From assembly GCA_035499295.1 (NCBI GenBank), contig DATJZG010000150.1, forward strand, positions 8,675-72,674: DNA of 64,000 bases, given 5' to 3'. Of the stretch, positions 5,582 to 61,555 are shown piece after piece; position 1 is the stretch's first letter, and every line of letters begins with the position of its first letter. Position numbers and translations under genes: made by a program. A model generated the notes under the pieces. It was not told the DNA's origin. It searched no databases and saw only the letters and a list, made by a program, of their open reading frames with translations. The stretch is from Anaeromyxobacteraceae bacterium. Its GTDB lineage: Bacteria; Myxococcota; Myxococcia; Myxococcales; Anaeromyxobacteraceae.

Positions 5582-6331
5582 ATGAGCGGCATTCTCTCGA
5601 AGAAGAGTGCCCTGGTGCTCGGGGCCGGCGGGCTCGGCAGCCCCGCCTTGATGGTGCTGGCGAGTTCCGGGGTGGGGCGCATCGCCGTGGTGGACGGGAG
5701 CGCCCTCGAGACCTCGGACCTGAACCGCCAACCCCTCTTCACCGAGGCCGACCTGGGCGAGCGCCGAGGCGCGGCGGCCGCGCGCAGGCTGACCCGCCTC
5801 TTCCCTGCGGTGAACGTCGAGGTCGTTGACGGGTGCTTCGACGAGGCGAGCGCCGCCGGCCTGGCGCGGTCCGCGGACGTGCTCGTCGACGGCGCGGACG
5901 ACGCCCCCACCAAGTTCTTGGCGAGCGACGCCGCGCTCCTCGCCGGGAGGCCGCTCGTGCACGGGGGCGTGCTGCGCTACACAGCGCATCTCCTCACCGT
6001 GATTCCCGGGGTGACGGGGTGCCTGCGCTGCCTCTTCGAGACGCCGCCGCCGCCCGGCTCGGTGCCGGGCGTCGCCGAGGCGGGCGTGCTCGGGCCGCTG
6101 GCGGGCCTGGCAGGCGCCCTCATGGGAGCGGAGGCAGTGCGCCTCCTACTCGGCGAGCGGGGCGCCTACGCCGGTCGGCTCCTCGTCTACGAGGCCAGGC
6201 GGGCCCGCTCGCGCGCGGTGCCCGTTCGCATCCGCGACGGATGCCCGGCCTGCCGGGCCCAGCGGGAGGCGGTGGCCTCGGCAGGCGCCGCCGCACCCGG
6301 ACCCGGAACCCCGACCGCCGCAGGAGGCTAG
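5582..6331 (+). CDS. ThiF/MoeB/HesA-family E1-like adenylyltransferase
   Basis: VLGAGGLGSPALMVLASSGVGRIAVVD is a Rossmann GxGxxG motif. DLNRQ and DGADDAPTKF are present, as are two CxxC pairs (CLRC and CPAC). Confidence 0.8.
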   Translation: MSGILSKKSALVLGAGGLGSPALMVLASSGVGRIAVVDGSALETSDLNRQPLFTEADLGERRGAAAARRLTRLFPAVNVEVVDGCFDEASAAGLARSADVLVDGADDAPTKFLASDAALLAGRPLVHGGVLRYTAHLLTVIPGVTGCLRCLFETPPPPGSVPGVAEAGVLGPLAGLAGALMGAEAVRLLLGERGAYAGRLLVYEARRARSRAVPVRIRDGCPACRAQREAVASAGAAAPGPGTPTAAGG

Positions 6332-6333
6332 GC

Positions 6334-7032
6334 GTGGCCCTCTCCGAAGCCGAGGCGGCGCGCTACGCGCGCCAGCTCACCCTCCCCGGGTTCGTGCCGG
6401 CGACGCAGGAGTTCCTGCGCTCGGCCCGGGTCCACGTGGTGGGCGCCGGGGAGGTGGCGGGCCCGGCCCTCCTCTACCTGGCCGCCTCCGGGGTGGGCAC
6501 GCTGCTCCTCGACGACGCTCTCGACCTCGCCTCCGAGGACGCGGCTTCCTGGCTCTACGGCGCCGGCCAGGTGGGCGAACCCCGCATCTACGCGGCCATC
6601 GCGGCGGTGCGCGGGGCCACCTCCCTCTCCAAGCCGCGCCCCTACGCCACCGGCAGCGATCCGAGCGCGGCCCTCGTGTGCGCCTCGTCGCCCGGGACGG
6701 CGCGCGAGGCGGCCGAGCGGGCGAGGGTCGCCGGCCTGCCGCACGTGGTGGCGCTCGCCGACGGGGAGAGCGGCGAGGTGGTGACCGTCCCGCGCGGCGC
6801 CCCCTGCTACCAGTGCGCCTCGCGGCTGGCGAGCGGTGCACCGGCGAGGCCCGGCGCCGTGGCGGCGGCCCTGGGGGCGCTCGCCGCGCTCGAGCTCGTC
6901 CAGATCCTGGCGGGGGTGGTCGACCTGCCGCCGGGAGCGGGCCGGCGGGTGGACGTCGCGGGCGGCGAGCCGCAGACGCACCGCACCACGAGGGTGGCGG
7001 GCTGCGCCTGCGGGCGCCCGCGCCTGCCGTAG
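6334..7032 (+). CDS. Second, divergent ThiF-like E1 paralog
   Basis: GTG at 6334 with CAGGAGG at 6321-6327, 3 nt after the upstream stop. It has ARYARQLTLPGF, VVGAGEVAGPALLYLAASGVG and the cysteine pairs CYQC and CAC. It lacks the NLxRQ arginine-finger motif. Confidence 0.6.
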   Translation: MALSEAEAARYARQLTLPGFVPATQEFLRSARVHVVGAGEVAGPALLYLAASGVGTLLLDDALDLASEDAASWLYGAGQVGEPRIYAAIAAVRGATSLSKPRPYATGSDPSAALVCASSPGTAREAAERARVAGLPHVVALADGESGEVVTVPRGAPCYQCASRLASGAPARPGAVAAALGALAALELVQILAGVVDLPPGAGRRVDVAGGEPQTHRTTRVAGCACGRPRLP

Positions 7033-7160
7033 GCGCGGTGGTGGTTCGGGCCGCACGCAGCGGGAAGTGCTCGCCTCTCGGGCGCGGTGTTCCTCGCCGA
7101 ACTCCCGTTGACAAAACAGCGGTCCGGAGCGACGGTGCTGCGCTCGAGGCGGAGCGTCGC

Positions 7161-7952
7161 ATGGACGGGCTCAAAGTGATGCTGGCGGTGCACGTCTACG
7201 GCGACGTCTGCGGCGAGACCGTGCAGTGCCTCGTGTCGGAGCTGCGGCGCGAGGAGCGCGACCTGCGCTGGGACGTCGTCTTCCCGGCGAGCGACGCCCT
7301 GGTCTCGCGCCTGCGCTCCGAGATCGTCACCCGCGCCATCCAGGGTGGGCACGACGTCCTCGTCTGGCTCGACCACGACATGGTCTGGGCCCCCGGCGAC
7401 CTGGCCGGGCTGGTGAAGCGGTGCGCCGAGGTGAAGGGCGTGGTCGGAGGCCTCATCCCCTTCCGCGCGGAGTGGATGTTCGGGCGCGGCTTTCCCTGGC
7501 GGCCGGCGCCCGGGACCCGGGTGGCCGACGTCCAGCTCGGCCAGGACCGGCTGGTGCCGGCCGAGAAGGTCGGCGGCGGCTTCGTCGCCTTCTGGGTGCC
7601 GGCGCTGGCGCGCATGGTGGAGGCGCTCGAGAAGAGCCCGGATCCCGCCCTCAAGGTGAGCCGGTGCCGGTCGGCGGTGGAAGGGTTCTTCTGGGACGTG
7701 TGCCGCCCGGTGGCCGTCCCGTACGGCCCGGGCGAGGAGTGGCAGAACTACCTCTCGGAGGACTGGGCGCTCCTCATGCGCCTCGCGGCCTGCGAGGTGA
7801 AGGTGTTCGCCTGGACGAAGCCGCTCATCCGCCACGTCGGCCGCAAGGCCTACAGCGTGGCCGACGCGCTCGGGATCGTCGGCCCGGCGGACGACATCGA
7901 GGCCCATGTCCGCAGCACCCCCGGCGTCGTCGGGCCCTGGACGCCGGGCTAG
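7161..7952 (+). CDS. GT-A-fold glycosyltransferase-like protein (hypothetical)
   Basis: Internal ATG of the 6678-7952 frame. WLDHDM is DxD-like, and SEDWALLMRLAACEVKVFAWTKPLIRHVG resembles the ED..F..R....G.......HxG tail of GT2-like enzymes. Confidence 0.45.
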   Translation: MDGLKVMLAVHVYGDVCGETVQCLVSELRREERDLRWDVVFPASDALVSRLRSEIVTRAIQGGHDVLVWLDHDMVWAPGDLAGLVKRCAEVKGVVGGLIPFRAEWMFGRGFPWRPAPGTRVADVQLGQDRLVPAEKVGGGFVAFWVPALARMVEALEKSPDPALKVSRCRSAVEGFFWDVCRPVAVPYGPGEEWQNYLSEDWALLMRLAACEVKVFAWTKPLIRHVGRKAYSVADALGIVGPADDIEAHVRSTPGVVGPWTPG

Positions 7953-7970
7953 GTCAAGGGAGACGGATCG

Positions 7971-8498
7971 ATGGCGAAGGCGAAGCGAGGAGACACGGTG
8001 AAGCTGCACTACACCGGCAGGCTGACCGATGGAACGGTCTTCGACTCGACCGAGGACGCGGGAGCGCGGGTGTGGGACGGCTTCCGGGGCAAGGGAGTGT
8101 CCTTCGGGCCGGCGCAGCTCGTCATCGGGGCGGGCGAGATGCCCCCGGACTTCGAGGAGGCGCTCGTCGGCCTCGAGCCCGGAGAACAGGTCACCGTCCA
8201 CATCCCGGCCGAGCGGGCCTTCGGCGGGCGGGACGAGTCGCGCGTCACGGTCATCCCCATCGACGACTTCACCCCGCGGGAGCCGGGGCTCGAACGCTTC
8301 CGGGTCGCGGAAGGAAGGCATCGGCCCAACAACTTCGATCCCAAGGTCGGGGACGTCTGGGACGTGACGGCTCCGGACGGCTCCGCCTTTCGCGCGCGCG
8401 TGATCGCGAAGACGAAGGAATCCATCACCCTCGACGCCAACCACCCGCTGGCGGGGCAGGACGTCGTCTTCGACATCCGGCTGGTCGAGGTCGCGTAG
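7971..8498 (+). CDS. slyD: FKBP-type peptidyl-prolyl cis-trans isomerase (SlyD/SlpA-like)
   Basis: GDTVKLHYTGRLTDGTVFDST...GPAQLVIGAGEMPPDFEEALVGLEPGE..., then NHPLAGQDVVFDIRLVEV. Confidence 0.85.
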   Translation: MAKAKRGDTVKLHYTGRLTDGTVFDSTEDAGARVWDGFRGKGVSFGPAQLVIGAGEMPPDFEEALVGLEPGEQVTVHIPAERAFGGRDESRVTVIPIDDFTPREPGLERFRVAEGRHRPNNFDPKVGDVWDVTAPDGSAFRARVIAKTKESITLDANHPLAGQDVVFDIRLVEVA

Positions 8499-8613
8499 CG
8501 GGCGGCGCGAGCCGCCCTCCCGCGCCGCGCGCCGTCGGGCCGGAAGAGGAGACCCCCGTCGCCGTTGTCGCTCGCCGGCGCGGTGGGATGCGTCTCGACG
8601 AGAGTGCGAAGAG

Positions 8614-9096
8614 GTGCGCGTGCTGACGGGGACGGTGAGGTGGTTCGACGAGGAGAGGGGATTCGGCTTCCTCGCCCCCGACGACGGGGGCGAGGTCGTC
8701 TTCTGCCACTTCAGCGTGATCCAGGCGGACAGCGCCTACCGAAGCCTCGTCGAGGGGCAGCGGGTGGAATTCGTGGTCTTCGATCTGCCCGAGGGCCGGG
8801 TGGCCGGAAACGTGCGTAGGCTGGTCGACTCGAACGGCTCGTTCGTGACCGCGCCGCAAGCCGACGAGGTGCGCCTGTGGGCGATGCCCTACCGTCGGCC
8901 CGACCTCGCCGCCACAGCCGAGCGGCTTCGCCCGTTCGGAGAGGTGCGAGCCACCGACTTCTGGGTGCGCTTGCGCGCGCCGCCCCACGAGCTCGTCCTC
9001 TTCGACGACGGCCGGGCCATCGTGACGGGCACGGTCGACGAGGCGCTCGCGAGGAGCTTCGCCGCCAGGTGGCTCGGGGTGCGGATCCCGGAGTGA
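8614..9096 (+). CDS. Cold-shock domain protein with a roughly 90-aa C-terminal extension
   Basis: GTVRWFDEERGFGFLAPDDGGEVVFCHFS contains the RNP1/RNP2-like CSD motifs. The C-terminal domain is unassigned (see findings). Confidence 0.8.
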   Translation: MRVLTGTVRWFDEERGFGFLAPDDGGEVVFCHFSVIQADSAYRSLVEGQRVEFVVFDLPEGRVAGNVRRLVDSNGSFVTAPQADEVRLWAMPYRRPDLAATAERLRPFGEVRATDFWVRLRAPPHELVLFDDGRAIVTGTVDEALARSFAARWLGVRIPE

Positions 9097-9151
9097 TTCG
9101 GGATGCCCGCCCCGGGGCGGGCCGGGCCCCGGAGAGTCGACGGCGCGGCCC

Positions 9152-9595
9152 CTACTTGAGGATCAGCTCGCGAATGACCTGCTCGCCGAGGATGGTGCGC
9201 ATCTTGCCCCGCGCGGCGAACTCCGCGTTCGCCTTCTGCGAGGGGCCGACGAGCTTTTCCATGATGGGATCGAGCTTGGCGTCCAGGCCGTCGAAGGCGG
9301 CGAAGTTCTTGTAGGCGACCACGAGGTAGAGGTCCGGCTCTCCCGGGTGCCGGGGGGTGGCGCTGAACACCCGGTAGTCGACCACCACGCCCGCCTTCTT
9401 CTCCGCCTCCATCAGCTGCTTCCAGGGGCCCGCGAGCCACGCCATGTAGTCGTCCGTCATCCCGTCGAGGGTCCTCACGGAGGTGACGACGGAGACCGGT
9501 CCCTCGGTGAAGGGCCGATCCATCGCGGCGGCGCGGAAGCCAAAGCTCGCCAGGGCGAGCGAAGCGACGATCCAGAGCCGGCGGTTCGTTCCCAT
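9152..9595 (-). CDS. Secreted hypothetical protein
   Basis: ATG at 9595 preceded by GGAGAG. Signal peptide is MGTNRRLWIVASLALASFGFRAAA. The longer ORF-track extension is Arg/Pro-rich. Confidence 0.55.
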   Translation of the reverse strand: MGTNRRLWIVASLALASFGFRAAAMDRPFTEGPVSVVTSVRTLDGMTDDYMAWLAGPWKQLMEAEKKAGVVVDYRVFSATPRHPGEPDLYLVVAYKNFAAFDGLDAKLDPIMEKLVGPSQKANAEFAARGKMRTILGEQVIRELILK

Positions 9596-9864
9596 GTCTC
9601 TCCTGCCTTTCGTGAGGTCGCGCGGGGTCGCCCCGCTCGGGCGGCGCTCGGCCACCTGTAGTCCCCCTGTCGCGCGGCCGCACGCCCAAGACGGGTCGCA
9701 CTGCCGGCGAAGCCCCCGAACGGGCGACGCGCGTCCCTGGGCCGCAGCGCTGATGTCGGGGGGTCGCGGCCGGTCCGCGGCGGAGGGTGGGAGAGCGGAG
9801 CCCGGCGCAGTGGCGAGCATCGCGGCTGCGCCCGGGCGGGACGCTGGGGTACACTCGCCCCCCC

Positions 9865-11070
9865 ATGACGAGCTTCCTCGAGGCACGCGATGCCGTGCTC
9901 TCCCGCGTCTCCCCTCTGCCGCCCGAGGAGGTGCCGATTCTCGAGGCCGTCGGGCGCGTGCTCGCCGCCGACGTGGCGGCGTCACTCGACTTCCCCCCCT
10001 TCGACAACTCCGCCATGGACGGCTGGGCGGTGCTTGCCGCCGACGTGACCGGGCCCGTCTGCCTGCCGGTCACGGCCTTCGTCCCCGCCGGCGCCGCCTT
10101 GCCGGCCCCGCTCGCGCCCGGGACGGCGGCGCGGATCATGACCGGTGGCCCGATCCCTCCCGGGGCCGACACGGTGGTCCCCCTCGAAGAGGCCGCCGAG
10201 AGGGGGGGCGCGGTAGAGCTCTCCCGGCGGCTCGAGCGCGGGGCGCACGTCCGGCGGCGCGGCGGCGACATCGCCGCGGGCGACGTCGGGGTGCGGGCGG
10301 GCGCGGTCGTCGGCGCGGCCGAGGTGTCCTTCCTCGCCTCGGCCGCCCGGACCACGGTGCCGGTGTTCCGGCGGCCGCGCGTGGCCATCGTCTCCACCGG
10401 CGACGAGCTCGTGGAGCCCGGGGCGCCGCTCGGCCCTGGCCAGATCCACGACTCGAACGGGATCGCGGTGGCGGCCGCCGTGGTGGAGGCGGGCGGGGTG
10501 CCGGTGCCCCTGGGCATCGCGCGCGACGATGCCGGGGAGCTGCGGGAGCGCCTCGCGGAAGGGCTCAGGGCGGACGTGCTCGTCACCACCGCCGGGGTGT
10601 CCATGGGCGATCGCGACCTGGTCCGGGAGGTGCTCGCCGAGCTCGGCGTCGCCCCGGTGTTCTTCACCGTCGAGGTGAAACCCGGGCACCCCACCGCCTT
10701 CGGGACCCGCGCTGGCACCGCGGTGCTCTCCCTGCCCGGGAACCCCGTCTCCACCCTCATGATGTTCGAGCAGCTGGTGCGCCCGGCGCTCCTCAAGATG
10801 CAGGGACACCGGCACGTGCTCCGCCCGCTCGTGCAGGCGGTGCTCGACGAGCGGCTCGCGCATCGGGCCGGGCGGGTCACCTTCGCGCGGGTCCGGCTCG
10901 ACTCGAGGGACGGCGCGCTCCGCGCCCGGAGCGCGGGGAAGCAGGAGACGTTCTTCCTGCGCACCCTGCTCGACGCCGACGGGGTGGCGCTCCTGCCGCC
11001 GGAGCGCGCCGACGCGCCGCCGGGGATCTCGGTGCCCGTCCAGGTGCTGCGCCCGGCCCACGCCCGCTAG
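9865..11070 (+). CDS. moeA: Molybdopterin molybdenumtransferase MoeA
   Basis: The sequence from MTSFLEARDAVL includes PPFDNSAMDGWAV, TGDEL, IHDSNG, TTAGVSMGDRD, KPGHPT and LPGNPVS. Confidence 0.9.
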   Translation: MTSFLEARDAVLSRVSPLPPEEVPILEAVGRVLAADVAASLDFPPFDNSAMDGWAVLAADVTGPVCLPVTAFVPAGAALPAPLAPGTAARIMTGGPIPPGADTVVPLEEAAERGGAVELSRRLERGAHVRRRGGDIAAGDVGVRAGAVVGAAEVSFLASAARTTVPVFRRPRVAIVSTGDELVEPGAPLGPGQIHDSNGIAVAAAVVEAGGVPVPLGIARDDAGELRERLAEGLRADVLVTTAGVSMGDRDLVREVLAELGVAPVFFTVEVKPGHPTAFGTRAGTAVLSLPGNPVSTLMMFEQLVRPALLKMQGHRHVLRPLVQAVLDERLAHRAGRVTFARVRLDSRDGALRARSAGKQETFFLRTLLDADGVALLPPERADAPPGISVPVQVLRPAHAR

Positions 11071-54773: not shown

Positions 54774-54798
54774 CAGCGAGAAAGGGAAGGTGAACCCC

Positions 54799-55671
54799 AT
54801 GATCCCCGCTTCCTTCGACTACCAGGCGCCTTCGACCCTGGCCGACGCGCTCCGGCTCCTCGACCAGAACCGCGAGGGGGCGAAGGTGCTCTCCGGGGGG
54901 CAGAGCCTGCTCCCGCTCCTCAAGCTCCGGCTCGGCCAGGTGGAGATGCTCGTCGACATCGGGAAGGTCCCCGGCCTCGACTACATCCGCGAGGAGGGGG
55001 GCACGCTCCGGATCGGGGGGCGCACCCGCGAGGTCGAGCTGGAGCGCTCGGAGCTCTTGCGCTCGCGCTACCCGGCCCTCTCCGACACCGCCAGCGTGAT
55101 CGCCGACCCGCTGGTGAGGAACCTCGCCACCATCGGCGGGAACCTCGCCCACGGCGACCCGGCCAACGACCACCCGGCCACCATGATGGCGCTCGGGGCC
55201 CGGGTCGTCGCCACCGGCCCGAAGGGGCAGCGGGAGATCGCCATCGACGAATTCTTCCGGGGGCTCTTCTCGACCGCCCTCGAGCCCAGCGAGATCCTGA
55301 CCGAGATCCGGATCCCGGCACCGCCCCCCCGGAGCGGCGGAGCCTACGTGAAGCTCGAGCGCAAGGTGGGCGACTTCGCCACCGCCGCGGCCGCGGTGCA
55401 GCTCACCCTGGGCGCCGGGGGAGCGGTGGAGCGGGCCGGCATCGCCCTCACCAACGCCGGCCCCACCCCGGTGCGGGCGCGCGAGGCGGAGAAGTACCTC
55501 GTCGGGAAGAAGCTCGACGAGAAGACCCTCGCCGAGGCCGCGCGGCTCGCGGCCTCGGCGGCGAGGCCGAGCGCCGATCGCCGGGGCTCTGTCGAGTACA
55601 AGCGCGAGATGGCCCGGGTCCTCGCGGCCCGCGCCCTCGAGAAGGCCGCCCGCCGGGCGGAGGGACGGTAG
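54799..55671 (+). CDS. coxM: CO dehydrogenase / xanthine dehydrogenase-family FAD-binding medium subunit
   Basis: [16 protein letters not shown]......K.L.GGQSL.P.LK.R and [17 protein letters not shown] are present. The GTG at 54790 is an alternative start. Confidence 0.85.
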
Positions 55672-55673
55672 CC

Positions 55674-56144
55674 ATGGCCCAGCACCAGATCCGCGTCACC
55701 GTGAACGGCTCCCCGCACGAGGCCCGGGTGGAGAGCCGCCTGCTGCTCGTCCACCTCTTGCGCGAGGTCCTCCGCCTCACCGGCACCCACATCGGCTGCG
55801 ACACCACCCACTGCGGCGCCTGCACCGTGCTGCTCGACGGCGAGCCGGTGAAGAGCTGCACCGTCCTGGCGGTGCAGGCCGACGGGCGGGAGGTCACGAC
55901 CGTCGAGGGCCTGGAGAAGGACGGGAAGCTCCACCCCGTGCAGGAGGGCTTCTGGCAGATGCACGGCCTGCAGTGCGGCTACTGCACGCCGGGGATGATG
56001 ATGACGAGCTACGCGCTGCTTCAGCGGAACCGCAACCCGACCGAGGAGCAGATCCGCGAGGCCATCTCCGGGAACCTGTGCCGCTGCACCGGCTACGTGA
56101 ACATCGTGAAGTCCGTGCAGTACGCGGCCGAGAAGCTGCGCTAG
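55674..56144 (+). CDS. coxS: CO dehydrogenase-family [2Fe-2S] small subunit
   Basis: [15 protein letters not shown] and QCGYCTPGM...C.....GNLCRCTGY are present. Confidence 0.9.
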
Positions 56145-56153
56145 GAGGCGACC

Positions 56154-58520
<2,367 letters not shown>

Positions 58521-58529
58521 CCTCCGGGG

Positions 58530-58952
58530 CTACCCCTTCTTCCCGCCCTGGATGACGCCGAAGCGCGGCCGCTTGCGCTCCGGCGGGCGGAGCTCGCCCG
58601 CCACCACCGACGGCCAGGGGAAGGCGCAGTCGACCCGCGTGCCGCGGAAGGTGAGGTTGCAGCGGATGCCCCACTCGTCGAGCGAGAGGTGCGGCGTGTC
58701 GCGCCCGGCGACGAGGTTGAGCCGGACGAGCTCCTCCCCGCGCAGGAACTCGGGGAGCTCCACCCCCGGCACGGCCGGCGCGACCAGCACCCACTCGACG
58801 GCGGAGGCCTTGCGGCAGGCGTCGAGCATCTCCGGGTGGCGCCCCTCGAGCGCGAGCGCGTGGAGGGCCTCGCCGCCCCAGCGCGGGCACTCGGGGGTGC
58901 AGGCCTCCTCGGGGGGATGGGCGTGGGGGGCGTCCACGGCCGCCTTGTACAA
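58530..58952 (-). CDS. SspB-like (ClpXP adaptor family) protein
   Basis: VELPEFLRGEELVRLNLVAGRDTPHLSLDEWGIRCNLTFRGTRVDCAFPWPSVVA parallels the E. coli SspB core (VQVP.EY..DG.IVLNIS..AV..L.L....V.F.ARF.G....V.VP..AV.A). The basic C-terminal tail RPRFGVIQGGKKG resembles a ClpX-binding tail. It starts 48 nt after the TIR gene stop. Confidence 0.5.
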   Translation of the reverse strand: MYKAAVDAPHAHPPEEACTPECPRWGGEALHALALEGRHPEMLDACRKASAVEWVLVAPAVPGVELPEFLRGEELVRLNLVAGRDTPHLSLDEWGIRCNLTFRGTRVDCAFPWPSVVAGELRPPERKRPRFGVIQGGKKG

Positions 58953-58999
58953 CGAAAGCGCCTCCCCGGGCAGCGGGGGAGGGCGGCGGCCGAGGGCGG

Positions 59000-60355
59000 T
59001 TACTCGGGGGCGAGGACGAGCTGGGTCTGCGCCTTGAAGGTGGGCTCGTGCTTAGAGTTGTCCGACCCGCCGGCGCGCCCGAACTCGAGGTCGAGGGTGA
59101 CGCTCGGCGGCGGCTTCGAGAGCGCCAGGGTGCCGGAGATGCGGACGTAGGCCATGCCGTCCCCGGCCTGGGCGCTGCGCACCCCCTCGAAGAAGACCTG
59201 GTCGGCGTCGCGCACGGCGCGCACCGTCATGGGGAAGAAGCCGGGGGCCTGGTTCGCCGGGGCGAAGGTGAGGTGCGCGCCGTCGAGGACCCAGCGGGCG
59301 CTTCCCACGAGCTCGCGCCCCTTCTCCTTGGCGTCGGGGTTGCCGAGGTACTGCTGGAAGGAGACGACGCTCCGGGTGGCAAAGCTGGCGCGCTCGGGGC
59401 CCGCCTTCTGGGCCGGCTCGGGGGCGACCGCCCCCGAGGCCGCGACGGCGCTCGCGGACGGCGAGTCCCGGGCGGTCGACGGGGGCGCCGCCGGGGAGGG
59501 CCGCTCGGCCCTCCGGGCGGGGCTCTTCGCGACCGCGACCGCGGCCGGGGGAGGGGCGGGAGGGGCGGCCGAGAGCGCCTTCTGCGGGGGCGCCGCGGGC
59601 GCCGGGCCGGCGCGCGGGGGAGGGGAGGCCGGCGGCGCCGCCGGCGGCGGTCGCTCCGGGGGCGCCGCCGCGGCGGCCCCGGCCTCGCCGCCCGCGTGCG
59701 AGGCCGGATGGCCCTCGCCGCTGCGCGTCGCGCTCGGGCGCCGCAGGAGGGCGAAGGTCGCCCCAGCGACGGCGAGGAGGAGCGCCGCGAGGAGGATCCC
59801 GCGGAGCCCCACCCGGCGCGCCGCCCCTCCCGGCAGGCGGCGCCGGAGCGTGTCGACGAGGAGCGAGACGTTGTAGTCCCAGTCCTGCTCGGTGAGCTGG
59901 AGGCACTGGCGGTGGAGGAGGCCCAGGAGCGCCGGCGGGAGGTCTTCCTCGGAGGGCAGGGTGGCCCCGCCCACCAGGACCGGGACGACGAGCACGTCCT
60001 GGCGCTTGAGCGCGGTCGCGATCTCGAGCGAGACCACGTCGCGAGGGTCCTTCAAGCGTCGGCGCCCGGAGGCGTCGGCGATGGTGGCCCAGTTCCTCCC
60101 GATGAGGACGAGCACCACCCGGCAGCTCCCCACCGTGCGCTCGATCTCCTCCATGTAGTTCACGCCCGGCTCGAGCCCCTTCACGTCCATGAAGACCTGG
60201 CGGGGAAAGGCCTGCTCGAGCGCGTAGAGGAGCGCCCGGGCCTGCCCGCCGCTGTCCTCGCGCCGGTAGTTGATGAAGACGGCGCGCCCGGAGCGCGAGC
60301 GGGCGCGCGAGGGCGCCGCCGCCGGCCGCGCCGCCTCCCCGGTGGGAGCGCTCAT
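59000..60355 (-). CDS. TIR-domain membrane protein: N-terminal TIR - single TM - Pro/Ala-rich linker - roughly 130-aa extracytoplasmic domain
   Basis: The ATG at 60355 overlaps the upstream stop (ATGA). The TIR_2-type pattern is RAVFINYRREDSGGQARALLYALE..FPRQVFMDV..LEPGVNYMEEIERTVGSCRVVLVLIG.NW...........DVVSLEIATAL....VLVVPVLV. The TM segment is GILLAALLLAVAGATFALL. A PA-rich tract follows (PPERPPPAAPPASPPP...) and then a beta-rich C-terminal domain. Confidence 0.8.
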   Translation of the reverse strand: MSAPTGEAARPAAAPSRARSRSGRAVFINYRREDSGGQARALLYALEQAFPRQVFMDVKGLEPGVNYMEEIERTVGSCRVVLVLIGRNWATIADASGRRRLKDPRDVVSLEIATALKRQDVLVVPVLVGGATLPSEEDLPPALLGLLHRQCLQLTEQDWDYNVSLLVDTLRRRLPGGAARRVGLRGILLAALLLAVAGATFALLRRPSATRSGEGHPASHAGGEAGAAAAAPPERPPPAAPPASPPPRAGPAPAAPPQKALSAAPPAPPPAAVAVAKSPARRAERPSPAAPPSTARDSPSASAVAASGAVAPEPAQKAGPERASFATRSVVSFQQYLGNPDAKEKGRELVGSARWVLDGAHLTFAPANQAPGFFPMTVRAVRDADQVFFEGVRSAQAGDGMAYVRISGTLALSKPPPSVTLDLEFGRAGGSDNSKHEPTFKAQTQLVLAPE

Positions 60356-60666
60356 CGCTCTCCGTCCTCCCCACCCGGACCGAGGATGCGGAACCCGAGC
60401 GCGCACAGGGCCTTCAGGCTCTCGAGGACGGTGGCCCGGTCGTACGCCTTCTCCTCCTCCGGGAGCTCTTCGTAGGGGACGAGGCTCGGGTGCAGCTTGC
60501 GCTCCTCGTCGCGGCGCGGGCCGAGGCGCCACCCCTCGGCGAGCCGGCCCCGGGCCCAGACCTCGTGGGCGTTGCGGGCGAGCTTCTCGCCCACCCGCGC
60601 CACCTCTTCCGGGAGCTTCACGGCCTTCGTGTCGATGGGGTTCGGGCGGTAAGGGGCGGCCGGCAT
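60352..60666 (-). CDS. Stand-alone ryanodine-receptor (RyR) repeat domain protein, 104 aa
   Basis: ATG at 60666 after AGGGAG. YRPNPIDTKAVKLPEEVARVGEKLARNAHEVWARGRLAEGWRLGPRRDEERKLHPSLVPYEELPEEEKAYDRATVLESLKALCALGFRI matches the RyR repeat pattern as I remember it (..P.P.D.s.v.Lp.....l...LAEN.HnvWA..R...GW.YG...D...k.hP.LVPy..L.e.EK.y.r......lk.L.alGy.i). Confidence 0.8.
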   Translation of the reverse strand: MPAAPYRPNPIDTKAVKLPEEVARVGEKLARNAHEVWARGRLAEGWRLGPRRDEERKLHPSLVPYEELPEEEKAYDRATVLESLKALCALGFRILGPGGEDGER

Positions 60667-60780
60667 GGATCGCTCCCTATTCTGATAGCGGGCGGCCCGC
60701 CGCCGGCAAGACCCGAGGCGCGGGACGCCCGGGCCCTGGCACTGCGCGGCAAGGGGAACCCATCTGGGCGCGCGCCGGCG

Positions 60781-60832: not shown

Positions 60833-61555
60833 ATGAGAAGGGTCGTCGCAGCGGTCGCGTTTCTCGGTGCGCTCGCCCCGGCCGTGCCCGCCGGGGCGCA
60901 GGAGGGCGTCCAGCCGTTCCTCACCCCGGCTCCGCCCGGGCCGCCCGAGAGCGGGGTCTCGATCGGGGTGAGCGTCGGCTACAGCGTGCCCATGGGGTCG
61001 GCCGTCGGGGCGCCCACCGGCGGCCTCGCCGCCACCTCGTTCACCGACATCTACAGCGGCGCGGTCCCCCTGCAGCTCGACCTGGGCTGGCGCTTCGGCC
61101 CCAGCCTCTACCTCGGGGCCTACTTCGAGTACGCGTTCGCGTTCGTCGCCGCCGCGCAGAACTGCAACAACGGCACGACCTGCTCGGGCGGCGACATGCA
61201 CTTCGGCATCGACTTCGTCTACACCTTCATCCCCCGGGCGGTGTTCGCGCCCTACGTGGGCTTCGGGGTGGGGTACGAGATCGCCACCCTGAGCGCGAGC
61301 AACTCGGGCCAGTCCATCAGCGCGACCTACGACGGCTTCGAGTTCGCCCGCTTCATCGTCGGGGGGGACTTCCGCGTCGGCAGCGCCTTCCGGGTGGGCC
61401 CCTTCCTCAACTTCTCGCTCGGCCAGTTCACCAACATGAGCACGCCCTTCAACTCGAACGGCGCGCTCGCCGGCACCAACCAGTCGGTCAGCATCGCCAA
61501 CAAGGCCTTGCACGAATGGCTGCAGTTCGGGATCAAGGGGACGGTCGACCTCTGA
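60833..61555 (+). CDS. Small beta-barrel outer-membrane protein
   Basis: Signal peptide is MRRVVAAVAFLGALAPAVPAGAQ. The sequence has alternating-hydrophobic strands (LQLDLGWRF, LYLGAYFEYAF, HFGIDFVYTF, APYVGFGVGYE, WLQFGIKGTVDL). Confidence 0.65.
   Translation: MRRVVAAVAFLGALAPAVPAGAQEGVQPFLTPAPPGPPESGVSIGVSVGYSVPMGSAVGAPTGGLAATSFTDIYSGAVPLQLDLGWRFGPSLYLGAYFEYAFAFVAAAQNCNNGTTCSGGDMHFGIDFVYTFIPRAVFAPYVGFGVGYEIATLSASNSGQSISATYDGFEFARFIVGGDFRVGSAFRVGPFLNFSLGQFTNMSTPFNSNGALAGTNQSVSIANKALHEWLQFGIKGTVDL

Follow-up and report, generated by a model that had tools for sequence, protein, structure and literature searches.

To our knowledge, it is largely unexplained how bacterial TIR systems detect an infection, and those ThsB proteins that have been characterised are soluble. 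A gene in the window analysed here, a stretch of 64,000 nucleotides from an Anaeromyxobacteraceae bacterium, raises the question whether a TIR domain can be wired to an input outside the cytoplasm. A preliminary description, made from the sequence alone, had placed an open reading frame for a TIR domain, a transmembrane (TM) helix, a linker and an outer domain at 59000-60355, and we confirmed this gene, P0001, at exactly these positions, with its ATG at 60355-60353 and its stop codon at 59002-59000 on the minus strand (Table 1). Its architecture is common to 16 orthologues. Starting at the GTG at 60532 instead would carry the frame approximately 180 nt into the neighbouring RyR gene and is without orthologue support, and the ATG at 60355 was preferred. 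As to the interpretation given earlier, the TIR domain, the topology, a new beta-rich domain and an envelope input held up, whereas surface exposure and rarity of the arrangement did not. Moreover, P0001, the sole TIR_2 gene in a genome of 4.8 Mb, is no stand-alone oddity; it is one member of a four-gene cassette, the other three encoding an RyR protein, an outer-membrane protein (OMP) and a double-SLATT protein.

Table 1. Features of the cassette and its immediate surroundings, in coordinates of the window.
Feature	Position	Strand	Basis or remark
TIR-TM-linker-CTD gene (P0001), 451 aa	59000..60355	-	ORF and translation, stop included
TIR_2 domain, aa 26-160	59876..60280	-	Pfam PF13676, E 2.6e-10
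Single TM helix, aa 186-204 (GILLAALLLAVAGATFALL)	59744..59800	-	mean Kyte-Doolittle 2.49
Pro/Ala-rich linker, aa 205-320	59396..59743	-	61% Pro+Ala (measured over aa 215-320)
C-terminal domain (CTD), aa 321-451	59003..59395	-	conserved across 16 orthologues
Stand-alone RyR (Repeat12-type) domain gene, 104 aa	60352..60666	-	Pfam PF02026, E 2.1e-33
8-stranded outer-membrane beta-barrel protein (OMP; predicted), 240 aa, signal peptide	60833..61555	+	AF2 pLDDT 86.5
Double-SLATT (SLATT_3 + SLATT_1) 4-TM protein, 318 aa	61516..62472	+	Pfam E 1.5e-25, 3.7e-16
Palindrome CCCAGATGGG, candidate operator	60759..60768	.	divergent intergenic region, aligned cassettes
Terminator-like hairpin directly after the TIR stop	58961..58982	-	consensus scan

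A SARM1-like TIR domain

The preliminary description had assigned a TIR_2-type domain with a catalytic-type Glu in its SLEIATAL segment and had made the assignment subject to a profile search. P0001 scores 41.3 bits against PF13676 (Pfam gathering cut-off 28 bits), and the TIR domain of human SARM1 is the closest solved structure by sequence (E 1.7e-4). In this alignment Glu111, encoded at 60023-60025 and lying in the SLEIATAL segment, falls on the catalytic Glu of SARM1 'HKEIVTAL', so that the assignment was borne out on both counts. P0001 also has a SARM1-like 'FINYRR' box, its 'INYRR' aligning with 'ISYRR' of SARM1. The 'YRR' box is conserved in all orthologues, and Glu111 is kept in every orthologue covering that stretch of the TIR domain as well as in distant paralogues. 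On the other hand, P0001 differs from SARM1 in having no ARM or SAM domains, in being anchored to the membrane by a helix C-terminal to the TIR domain, and in carrying Val instead of Trp638. In SARM1 this Trp precedes the catalytic Glu by four residues and contacts ligand; the P0001 orthologue family has Val107 at the position throughout, and Trp or Phe is seen in some paralogues. It is thus not assured that the P0001 TIR domain acts as NADase or cyclase. PADLOC, which has models for neither the RyR nor the SLATT proteins, reported neither of them and matched P0001 to ThsB only in part (aa 21-84).

Orientation in the membrane

The segment aa 186-204 is the only one in P0001 with a mean Kyte-Doolittle value above 1.6 (the runner-up reaches 1.25), in agreement with the one TM helix described before. 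Six Lys and Arg residues stand on its N-terminal flank versus three on the C-terminal flank, the means over 14 orthologues being 4.8 and 2.0 with the same direction in 14/14; the earlier view that the basic residues beside the helix leave its orientation open was therefore slightly overcautious. We infer that P0001 is a single-pass inner-membrane protein with its N-terminus inside and its C-terminus outside, because it has no signal peptide and the positive-inside bias is shared by all 14 orthologues, because relatives of the CTD follow signal peptides or end Ser/Thr kinase-TM proteins, and because a gene for an OmpA/OmpW-like outer-membrane barrel consistently accompanies the CTD gene. All these observations agree with the cytoplasmic TIR domain and outer C-terminus first proposed. 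The CTD had, however, been called surface-exposed, and of this claim only the extracytoplasmic location stands: the host is a diderm and the CTD would accordingly be periplasmic, the surface component likely being the neighbouring 8-stranded outer-membrane barrel.

The Pro/Ala-rich spacer of about 110 residues seen in the first reading corresponds to the linker in Table 1, predicted to form a stalk across the periplasm. Its length and sequence vary among orthologues, in contrast to the conserved domains on either side. NCBIfam matches of aa 181-328 to 'GltJ' and 'DNA pol III tau' were discarded as compositional, arising from the Pro/Ala-rich sequence.

The C-terminal domain

The AlphaFold2 model of the CTD is an 8-stranded beta-barrel with one helix (pLDDT 93.7, pTM 0.86). 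The domain belongs to no Pfam family and has no NCBIfam match, and neither a profile search nor Foldseek returned anything significant in the PDB. Among PDB structures Foldseek placed the avidin family first (E 0.011, TM 0.45, 13% identity), and the model shares with avidin and streptavidin (calycin) barrels the up-and-down course of eight strands within about 130 aa; as this weak match is not significant and the PDB profile search was empty, we did not assign the domain to the avidin/calycin fold. A beta-rich domain of about 130 aa without a known motif had been described from the sequence, with structure prediction and Foldseek suggested as checks, and the confidently modelled barrel with no significant PDB match and no Pfam entry is what these checks gave. 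The CTD, confidently predicted by AlphaFold2, would be a new fold family. Among its relatives, the small ones carry an N-terminal signal peptide in 4/4 cases, and the CTD also terminates Pkinase-TM-linker proteins.

A conserved four-gene cassette

The genes for RyR, TIR-TM-CTD, OMP and SLATT keep one layout in 6/6 genomes. On the minus strand the TGA of the RyR gene, which is preceded by an AGGGAG Shine-Dalgarno sequence, overlaps the ATG of the TIR gene as ATGA, and on the plus strand the SLATT gene begins inside the OMP gene, the two sharing 40 nt. The TIR and SLATT genes stand in divergent operons, with SLATT 1.2 kb from TIR, and they co-occur in 6/6 genomes. SLATT and RyR were found in the same six of 81 family genomes, and the CTD in those same six among 17 genomes tested; since the six belong to only two genera, the co-occurrence represents few independent events. 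The cassette occupies at least three chromosomal sites with flanking genes that differ between genomes. It is surrounded by housekeeping genes, and neither a defence island nor an integrase was seen near it.

In the divergent intergenic region a palindrome is a candidate operator. All five aligned cassettes have its core CCCA-N-ATG unchanged, whereas the complete ten-base sequence CCCAGATGGG is confined to the window and L034. The hairpin after the TIR stop is weak evidence of a terminator because one site was found versus 0.8 expected by chance. A 140-aa SspB-like gene downstream (58530-58952) was not counted as a cassette member, as it accompanies the cassettes of genus g1 only and lies beyond the hairpin.

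The RyR protein scores 114.9 bits against PF02026 (gathering cut-off 27.4 bits), and its family profile matches residues 859-951 of RyR2 with 100 bits. Residues H34, W37, H59 and D76 are invariant or nearly so in 20 homologues and have the spacing of H75, W78, H100 and D117, the ligand and catalytic residues of the phage protein RyDEP (PMC13232231), a mapping that derives from this identical spacing and the family-wide conservation stated in that study rather than from a direct alignment. Phage RyR-domain proteins were shown to bind or hydrolyse 2'/3'cADPR, and most of the tested phage homologues carrying these residues bind without cleaving (PMC13232231). The cassette RyR and RyDEP are both small, stand-alone PF02026 proteins, and their His, Trp, His and Asp positions agree in spacing. 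In contrast to RyDEP, the cassette RyR is host-encoded and translationally coupled to a presumed signal-making TIR, and is accordingly taken to be part of the system or its regulator, not an anti-defence factor.

The SLATT protein matches PF18184 and PF18181 with 90.7 and 59.7 bits in Pfam, and with 115 and 89 bits in NCBIfam, all above the cut-offs, and it is built of 2-TM units. For the OMP, the window sequence reaches 16 bits, below the Pfam cut-off of PF13505, whereas its orthologues carry this domain. The AF2 model of the OMP has eight long strands, for which Foldseek found OmpA (E 2e-6) and, at E values upwards of this, NspA and OmpW (both TM 0.6-0.7) as well as Ail, and together with the signal peptide this model points to a predicted 8-stranded outer-membrane barrel.

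The association of RyR, TIR and SLATT extends beyond the family. In other phyla, double-SLATT and TIR genes are the commonest neighbours of stand-alone RyR genes: at 77 RyR loci, a gene for an approximately 370-aa 4-TM DUF4231 protein adjoins in 20 and a TIR gene in 31, both in 9 and either in 42. These DUF4231 proteins align with the double-SLATT protein of the window (hhalign probability 96.5%, E 8e-10), and many of the TIR proteins beside RyR are of the TIR-TM-X type. Since the association is repeated there with different gene orders, adjacency of RyR and SLATT to TIR as mere shared ancestry within one family was rejected. In other proteins the RyR domain occurs in fusions with TrkA_N/RCK and kinase modules. 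Sequence databases in fact contain many TIR-TM-X proteins whose outer domains vary, and the "unusual input mode" of the preliminary description is better put as an uncharacterised architecture, not a rare one. The nearest TIR-TM-X paralogues of P0001 at other places are solitary, neither a RyR nor a SLATT gene lying within 5 kb of them.

A proposed sensor pair with two kinds of output

The CTD is found on a second type of receptor. Sister genomes encode it at the end of a Ser/Thr kinase (STK) protein (P0051, P0054, G011, G020), and in L114, G011 and G020 an OMP homologue (46% identity, E 4e-74), itself followed by an FHA-GAF-cyclase gene, lies divergently to the STK-TM-CTD gene, repeating the layout of the cassette with a different output. 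This is exactly the kinase-TM-sensor architecture of PknB-type receptor Ser/Thr kinases, from which the window differs in having TIR as output and RyR/SLATT downstream instead of FHA-GAF-cyclase. An OMP gene takes the same divergent position at 9/10 distinct CTD loci; one kinase-CTD locus (P0054) lacks an OMP neighbour. The OMP belongs to a large paralogous family present in 158/401 genomes, and a chance neighbour from such a family was therefore considered; it was dismissed because of the 9/10 CTD loci and because at control loci of other OMP paralogues a CTD, STK or TIR neighbour was found in 0/10. What is shown hereby is a swap of output modules, TIR versus kinase, on one OMP and CTD pair. 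We uphold the proposal that a cytoplasmic TIR domain receives its input from outside the cytoplasm, and the same CTD with the same OMP partner on a Ser/Thr kinase is the strongest evidence for it.

Possible function of the cassette

Because the TIR protein shares a conserved cassette with OMP, RyR and SLATT, NAD signalling of the Thoeris kind with an envelope input comes into view, and we consider it fairly probable that P0001 is an envelope-sensing receptor TIR feeding a RyR/SLATT output similar to that of type VII Thoeris. The identities of the domains, the linkage and co-occurrence of the genes, the recurrence of RyR with TIR and SLATT in other phyla and the exchange of outputs are shown by the data above, whereas the topology, contact between CTD and OMP, catalysis by the TIR domain and its product, the action of the RyR protein and the biological role are what we infer in the following steps. 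P0001 would be a type II inner-membrane receptor holding a periplasmic barrel on a Pro/Ala stalk of roughly 115 residues, and the CTD and the co-encoded 8-stranded OMP would act jointly as envelope sensor. A change in the envelope might be passed through the single helix and alter the self-association of the cytoplasmic SARM1-like TIR domains, which may then convert NAD+ to a signal of the cyclic-ADP-ribose type. The double-SLATT 4-TM protein would be the membrane effector, like ThsH in type VII Thoeris, while the RyR protein could bind the signal, either buffering or hydrolysing it and so setting a threshold, or serving as receptor for the SLATT protein. The outcome may be anti-phage abortive infection or another envelope-triggered response.

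The same wiring could also serve a role other than immunity, namely a physiological second-messenger pathway in which RyR reads a TIR-made nucleotide and gates SLATT as a regulated channel, not a suicide pore. The cue that drives nucleotide production by TIR would then be envelope-derived or environmental, perhaps a small hydrophobic ligand inside the barrel. We regard this as rather unlikely, though it accounts for several observations: the same OMP and CTD pair feeds a Ser/Thr kinase and an FHA-GAF-guanylate cyclase, an output that is regulatory rather than killing, the flanks are housekeeping genes with no defence genes nearby, and the RyR fusions to TrkA_N/RCK and kinase modules are regulatory as well. 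However, accessory or conflict systems typically show the patchy spread (6/81 family genomes) and the joint relocation seen for this cassette, all TIR and SLATT pairs tested to date are anti-phage systems, and SLATT domains have been described as cell-killing effectors.

Much less probable is that the TIR domain is the effector itself, depleting NAD+ as do SARM1 and TIR-effector defence proteins, with RyR and SLATT not its partners. SARM1, the closest solved relative, is indeed an NAD+-consuming executioner, and related TIR-TM-X proteins do occur alone, but translation of TIR is coupled at its start to the RyR gene, and RyR, TIR and SLATT recur jointly across phyla with shuffled gene orders. 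In addition, the kinase version has an FHA reader of the kinase output downstream of the OMP, which argues that SLATT, in that place, reads the output of TIR. Finally, a non-catalytic scaffold TIR, or a reversed topology with a cytoplasmic CTD, would fit the Val in place of Trp four residues before the Glu and a topology predicted from indirect evidence, but is highly improbable given the Glu and 'YRR' box in all orthologues, the lack of a signal peptide to export a 185-aa N-terminal domain, the signal peptides of CTD relatives and the positive-inside bias in 14/14 orthologues.

Relation to known systems

Returning to the reading of an envelope-sensing receptor TIR, its nearest described counterpart is type VII Thoeris, which consists of the TIR protein ThsB and the SLATT effector ThsH in two-gene operons and uses canonical cADPR as signal (bioRxiv 10.64898/2025.12.03.692087). 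The words periplasm, membrane-bound and RyR are absent from that preprint (10.64898/2025.12.03.692087). Both systems have a TIR_2-type protein with the catalytic-type Glu encoded beside a SLATT gene, and both are patchy and accessory. In contrast to type VII Thoeris, the cassette comprises four genes in two divergent operons, including RyR and outer-membrane barrel genes, its TIR protein is predicted to cross the membrane once and to expose a domain to the periplasm, and its SLATT protein is a tandem of SLATT_3 and SLATT_1 encoded in the operon divergent from TIR; the cassette is known from sequence alone.

[quoted passage not shown] It does not extend to homology beyond the TIR fold. Toll-like receptors have an N-terminal LRR ectodomain, a TM helix and a C-terminal scaffold TIR, whereas in P0001 the order is reversed (TIR N-terminal, type II), the sensor is a small predicted beta-barrel instead of LRR or Ig domains, and the TIR domain is of the enzymatic SARM1/bacterial kind. 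With its reversed order, no LRR and a SARM1-like TIR domain, P0001 is not a member of the Toll-like receptors.

Implications

A periplasmic input domain of a TIR protein, with an outer-membrane protein of its own, would place the sensing step at the envelope, and as the same sensor also drives a kinase, the system would be a tractable and modular one for studying TIR activation. More tentatively, and with some doubt, we put forward a trans-envelope receptor in which OMP and periplasmic barrel are a portable sensor pair for kinase or TIR, the TIR version running from a cADPR-type signal through an RyR Repeat12 domain to a channel or pore. If this is true, receptor-type TIR signalling and the link between cADPR and the ryanodine receptor, which has long been debated, would have a counterpart in prokaryotes in this cassette, and both may even have evolved from it; the anti-Thoeris RyDEP proteins of phages could likewise derive from it. 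The translational coupling of a host RyR gene to TIR, and its recurrent linkage to SLATT across many phyla, suggests for the Repeat12 fold a native role in reading or terminating signals derived from ADPR. Such a role bears directly on whether cADPR acts at ryanodine receptors via Repeat12 and on the origin of phage RyDEP.

Architecture of the TIR protein

The protein P0001 carries an N-terminal TIR domain, a transmembrane (TM) helix, a linker and a C-terminal domain (CTD), and its gene forms a four-gene cassette with those of a RyR protein, an outer-membrane barrel (OMP) and a double-SLATT protein. The preliminary description had placed it at window positions 59000-60355, which we accept, since the ORF lies there and 16 orthologues start near the same ATG, which forms an ATGA overlap with the TGA of the upstream RyR gene. 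A GTG start at 60532 was rejected, as it would enter the upstream gene by 180 nt in another frame. The proposed TIR_2-type domain was borne out by Pfam over aa 26-160 (E 2.6e-10; 41.3 bits against a cut-off of 28 bits), and the 4.8-Mb assembly has no TIR_2 gene other than that of P0001. PADLOC gave only a partial match to ThsB, the TIR protein of type VII Thoeris, and NCBIfam a match below threshold to ThcB4 of type III Thoeris. By sequence, the nearest solved structure is the TIR of human SARM1 (E 1.7e-4), in which 'FISYRR' stands opposite 'FINYRR' and 'DWVHKEIVTAL' opposite 'DVVSLEIATAL'; Glu111 falls on the SARM1 catalytic Glu, in line with the catalytic role previously suggested for the SLEIATAL glutamate, with the caveat that Val107, throughout the orthologue family, replaces the SARM1 Trp four residues ahead.

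The single TM helix postulated earlier corresponds to the sole hydrophobic segment, aa 186-204 (Kyte-Doolittle 2.49, against 1.25 for the runner-up). The 15 residues on either side hold six Lys+Arg before and three after the helix, with means of 4.8 and 2.0 across 14 orthologues and the same direction in all, and P0001 has no signal peptide. The 116-residue linker (61% Pro+Ala) varies in length and sequence among orthologues while the TIR and CTD on either side are conserved, as would be expected for a periplasm-spanning stalk.

Only 19 CTD relatives were found among 1.8 billion representative proteins, including, apart from orthologues, two Ser/Thr kinases (P0051 and P0054; Pkinase-TM-Pro/Ala linker-CTD) and four small proteins (P0058, P0060, P0061, and P0063) with the CTD immediately after an N-terminal signal peptide. 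The CTD is thus predicted to be extracytoplasmic wherever its context can be interpreted, which, together with the Lys+Arg bias and the missing signal peptide, supports the N-in/C-out orientation suggested before. Described initially as beta-rich without a known motif, the CTD has no family in Pfam or NCBIfam. Structure prediction and Foldseek, the route the preliminary description had proposed, gave a barrel of one long strand, one helix and seven further strands (AlphaFold2, 17-sequence alignment; pLDDT 93.7, pTM 0.86) with no PDB match at E < 0.001; the top matches were avidin-family barrels (E 0.011, TM 0.45), and a sequence profile found no match in the PDB. Hence, the model points to a new family of small beta-barrels.

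The cassette and its surroundings

Features of the cassette, its surroundings and related loci
Feature	Position	Strand or orientation	Remarks
P0001 gene	59000-60355	minus	451-aa ORF
RyR gene	60352-60666	upstream of P0001 gene	104 aa; PF02026, E 2e-33
OMP gene		divergent from RyR/TIR	240-aa exported protein
SLATT_3+SLATT_1 gene		divergent	318 aa; overlaps OMP gene by 40 nt; Pfam/NCBIfam
Palindrome CCCAGATGGG	60759-60768		between RyR and OMP genes
coxM-coxS-coxL	54790-58520		CO-dehydrogenase-type cluster
SspB-like gene	58530-58952	minus	140 aa; downstream of TIR gene
Kinase-CTD/OMP/FHA-GAF-guanylate cyclase cassette	L114:2536-7451; L115 (G011:C174) 5916-10465; L117 (G020:C612)
Pro/Ala-rich protein gene	L126:2301-3590	minus	430 aa
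RyR gene with a TrkA_N(RCK)-RyR gene after it; Pkinase-RyR fusions	L030:5001-7254; L020:5835-8639; L021; L023
RyR/SLATT pair	L029:5001-5808	convergent
Tandem TIR ORFs and RyR	L058:845-5456

The OMP was modelled by AlphaFold2 as an eight-stranded outer-membrane barrel (pLDDT 86.5) matching OmpA (E 2e-6) and NspA, OmpW, and Ail (TM 0.6-0.7) in Foldseek, and its orthologues carry PF13505. The palindrome is a candidate operator: five cassettes, each of a different genome, share its core CCCA-N-ATG without change, and two of them have the full ten bases. A terminator-like hairpin 3' of the TIR gene precedes a gene with weak similarity to SspB (E 0.054), conserved only in the cassettes of one genus (g1) and probably outside the unit.

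SLATT and RyR genes occur in exactly the same six of 81 Anaeromyxobacteraceae genomes, from two genera, and the CTD, tested for in 17 genomes, was present in exactly these six; the four-gene layout is identical in all six. The flanks differ: one genus has genes for CO dehydrogenase, GH3, and trigger factor there, and the other has either an M16 peptidase with multihaem cytochromes or a set of acetyl-CoA synthetase, FKBP, and ADH. No integrase or defence genes were seen beside the cassette. The cox cluster adjoining it in the window is a housekeeping context and not a defence island.

The sensor pair with a different output

The kinase gene of P0051 (locus L114) is divergent from a gene for a 235-aa homologue of the window OMP (46% identity, E 4e-74), with an FHA-GAF-guanylate cyclase gene next after the latter, and the same three genes recur in the same layout in two genomes (G011 and G020) of a third genus of the Anaeromyxobacteraceae. 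Thus, an output-TM-CTD gene divergent from an OMP gene and an output reader exists in two versions, kinase with FHA-cyclase and (RyR-)TIR with SLATT. The OMP comes from a large myxobacterial paralogue family (158/401 genomes), and none of ten control paralogue loci had a CTD, kinase or TIR neighbour. This swap within one layout, with the negative control loci, is the strongest evidence that CTD and OMP may act together as an input module, the gene after the OMP reading the cytoplasmic output.

The locus of the other kinase, P0054, lacks an OMP gene; a cNMP-binding protein gene and an HD-GAF gene lie nearby. At L126, another OMP paralogue has as its divergent neighbour the gene of a protein rich in Pro and Ala, which has a TM helix near its middle and matches no Pfam domain; the two may represent a further receptor and OMP pair of a different kind.

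Linkage of RyR, TIR and SLATT in other bacteria

RyR is rare in the phylum (11/401 genomes), and outside the Anaeromyxobacteraceae it occurs there as a fusion with kinase or TrkA_N modules. When species-representative genomes were searched with a profile built from stand-alone RyR proteins, 542 relatives were recovered; the best 80 loci were analysed, and after leaving out three from Anaeromyxobacteraceae, neighbouring ORFs were clustered for 77. Among these, the two commonest neighbour families (20 loci each) were a TIR_2 protein and a DUF4231 (SLATT-core) protein of about 370 aa with four TM helices, directly downstream of RyR and homologous to the window SLATT protein (283 columns, hhalign probability 96.5%, E 8e-10). 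Counting a second TIR cluster and TIR-profile matches, a TIR was present at 31/77 loci, SLATT at 20/77, both at 9/77 and either at 42/77 (29/44 for fully flanked loci); we estimate the chance of a TIR gene in a 12-kb stretch at well below 1%. Many RyR-linked TIRs are TIR-TM-X proteins of 400-590 aa with mutually unrelated C-terminal regions; in contrast, the nearest P0001 TIR paralogues whose outer domains differ occur on their own. Gene order varies: the operon in Acidobacteriota consists of RyR and SLATT, with TIR divergent, whereas the window pairs RyR with TIR.

Other arrangements were also seen. In a Bacteroidales MAG (L058), four or five tandem TIR ORFs, one a 432-aa TIR-TM protein, lie directly upstream of a stand-alone RyR. 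At L029, a stand-alone RyR gene converges on a single-SLATT (SLATT_1/DUF4231) gene encoding 154 aa, beside alanyl-tRNA synthetase and RecX-like genes, with no TIR within 5 kb. Large myxobacterial genomes supply the TrkA_N(RCK)-RyR and Pkinase-RyR examples, which suggest a general role of the RyR domain in ligand sensing. An alignment of bacterial stand-alone RyR proteins scored 100 bits against residues 859-951 of RyR2 in the PDB, the first repeat of the animal Repeat12 domain, with Asn at the Asp76 position; this is unusually close for a bacteria-animal match.

Discussion

Type VII Thoeris combines a TIR with the SLATT effector ThsH and signals through canonical cADPR, and the words RyR, periplasm, and membrane-bound are absent from its description (10.64898/2025.12.03.692087). 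The phage Repeat12-domain protein RyDEP hydrolyses or sequesters 2'/3'cADPR via His75, Trp78, His100, and Asp117, and the tested phage homologues mostly bind without cleavage; host-encoded RyR copies and SLATT are not discussed there (PMC13232231). Having identical spacing, His34, Trp37, His59, and Asp76 of the window RyR would correspond to these residues, and they are invariant or nearly so in 20 homologues.

From the observed anatomy and gene associations of the cassette we infer every biochemical step of the following scheme. An envelope event would be sensed by the OMP and by the periplasmic CTD on its stalk, and the single helix would alter self-association of the TIR, which would turn NAD+ into a cADPR-type signal. 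A RyR dimer would bind this signal, as buffer or hydrolase or as receptor, and the double-SLATT protein would act on the inner membrane. The outcome may be a regulated physiological response, for which the kinase sibling and the housekeeping genes around the cassette speak, or abortive infection; a defence role is favoured by the patchy occurrence and by what TIR and SLATT pairs are known to do. The observations of the preliminary description were correct and its interpretation mostly held, but it was incomplete in lacking the RyR, OMP, and SLATT partners. With these, P0001 appears to be the receptor-type signal generator of a Thoeris-like system, in a variant not described so far.
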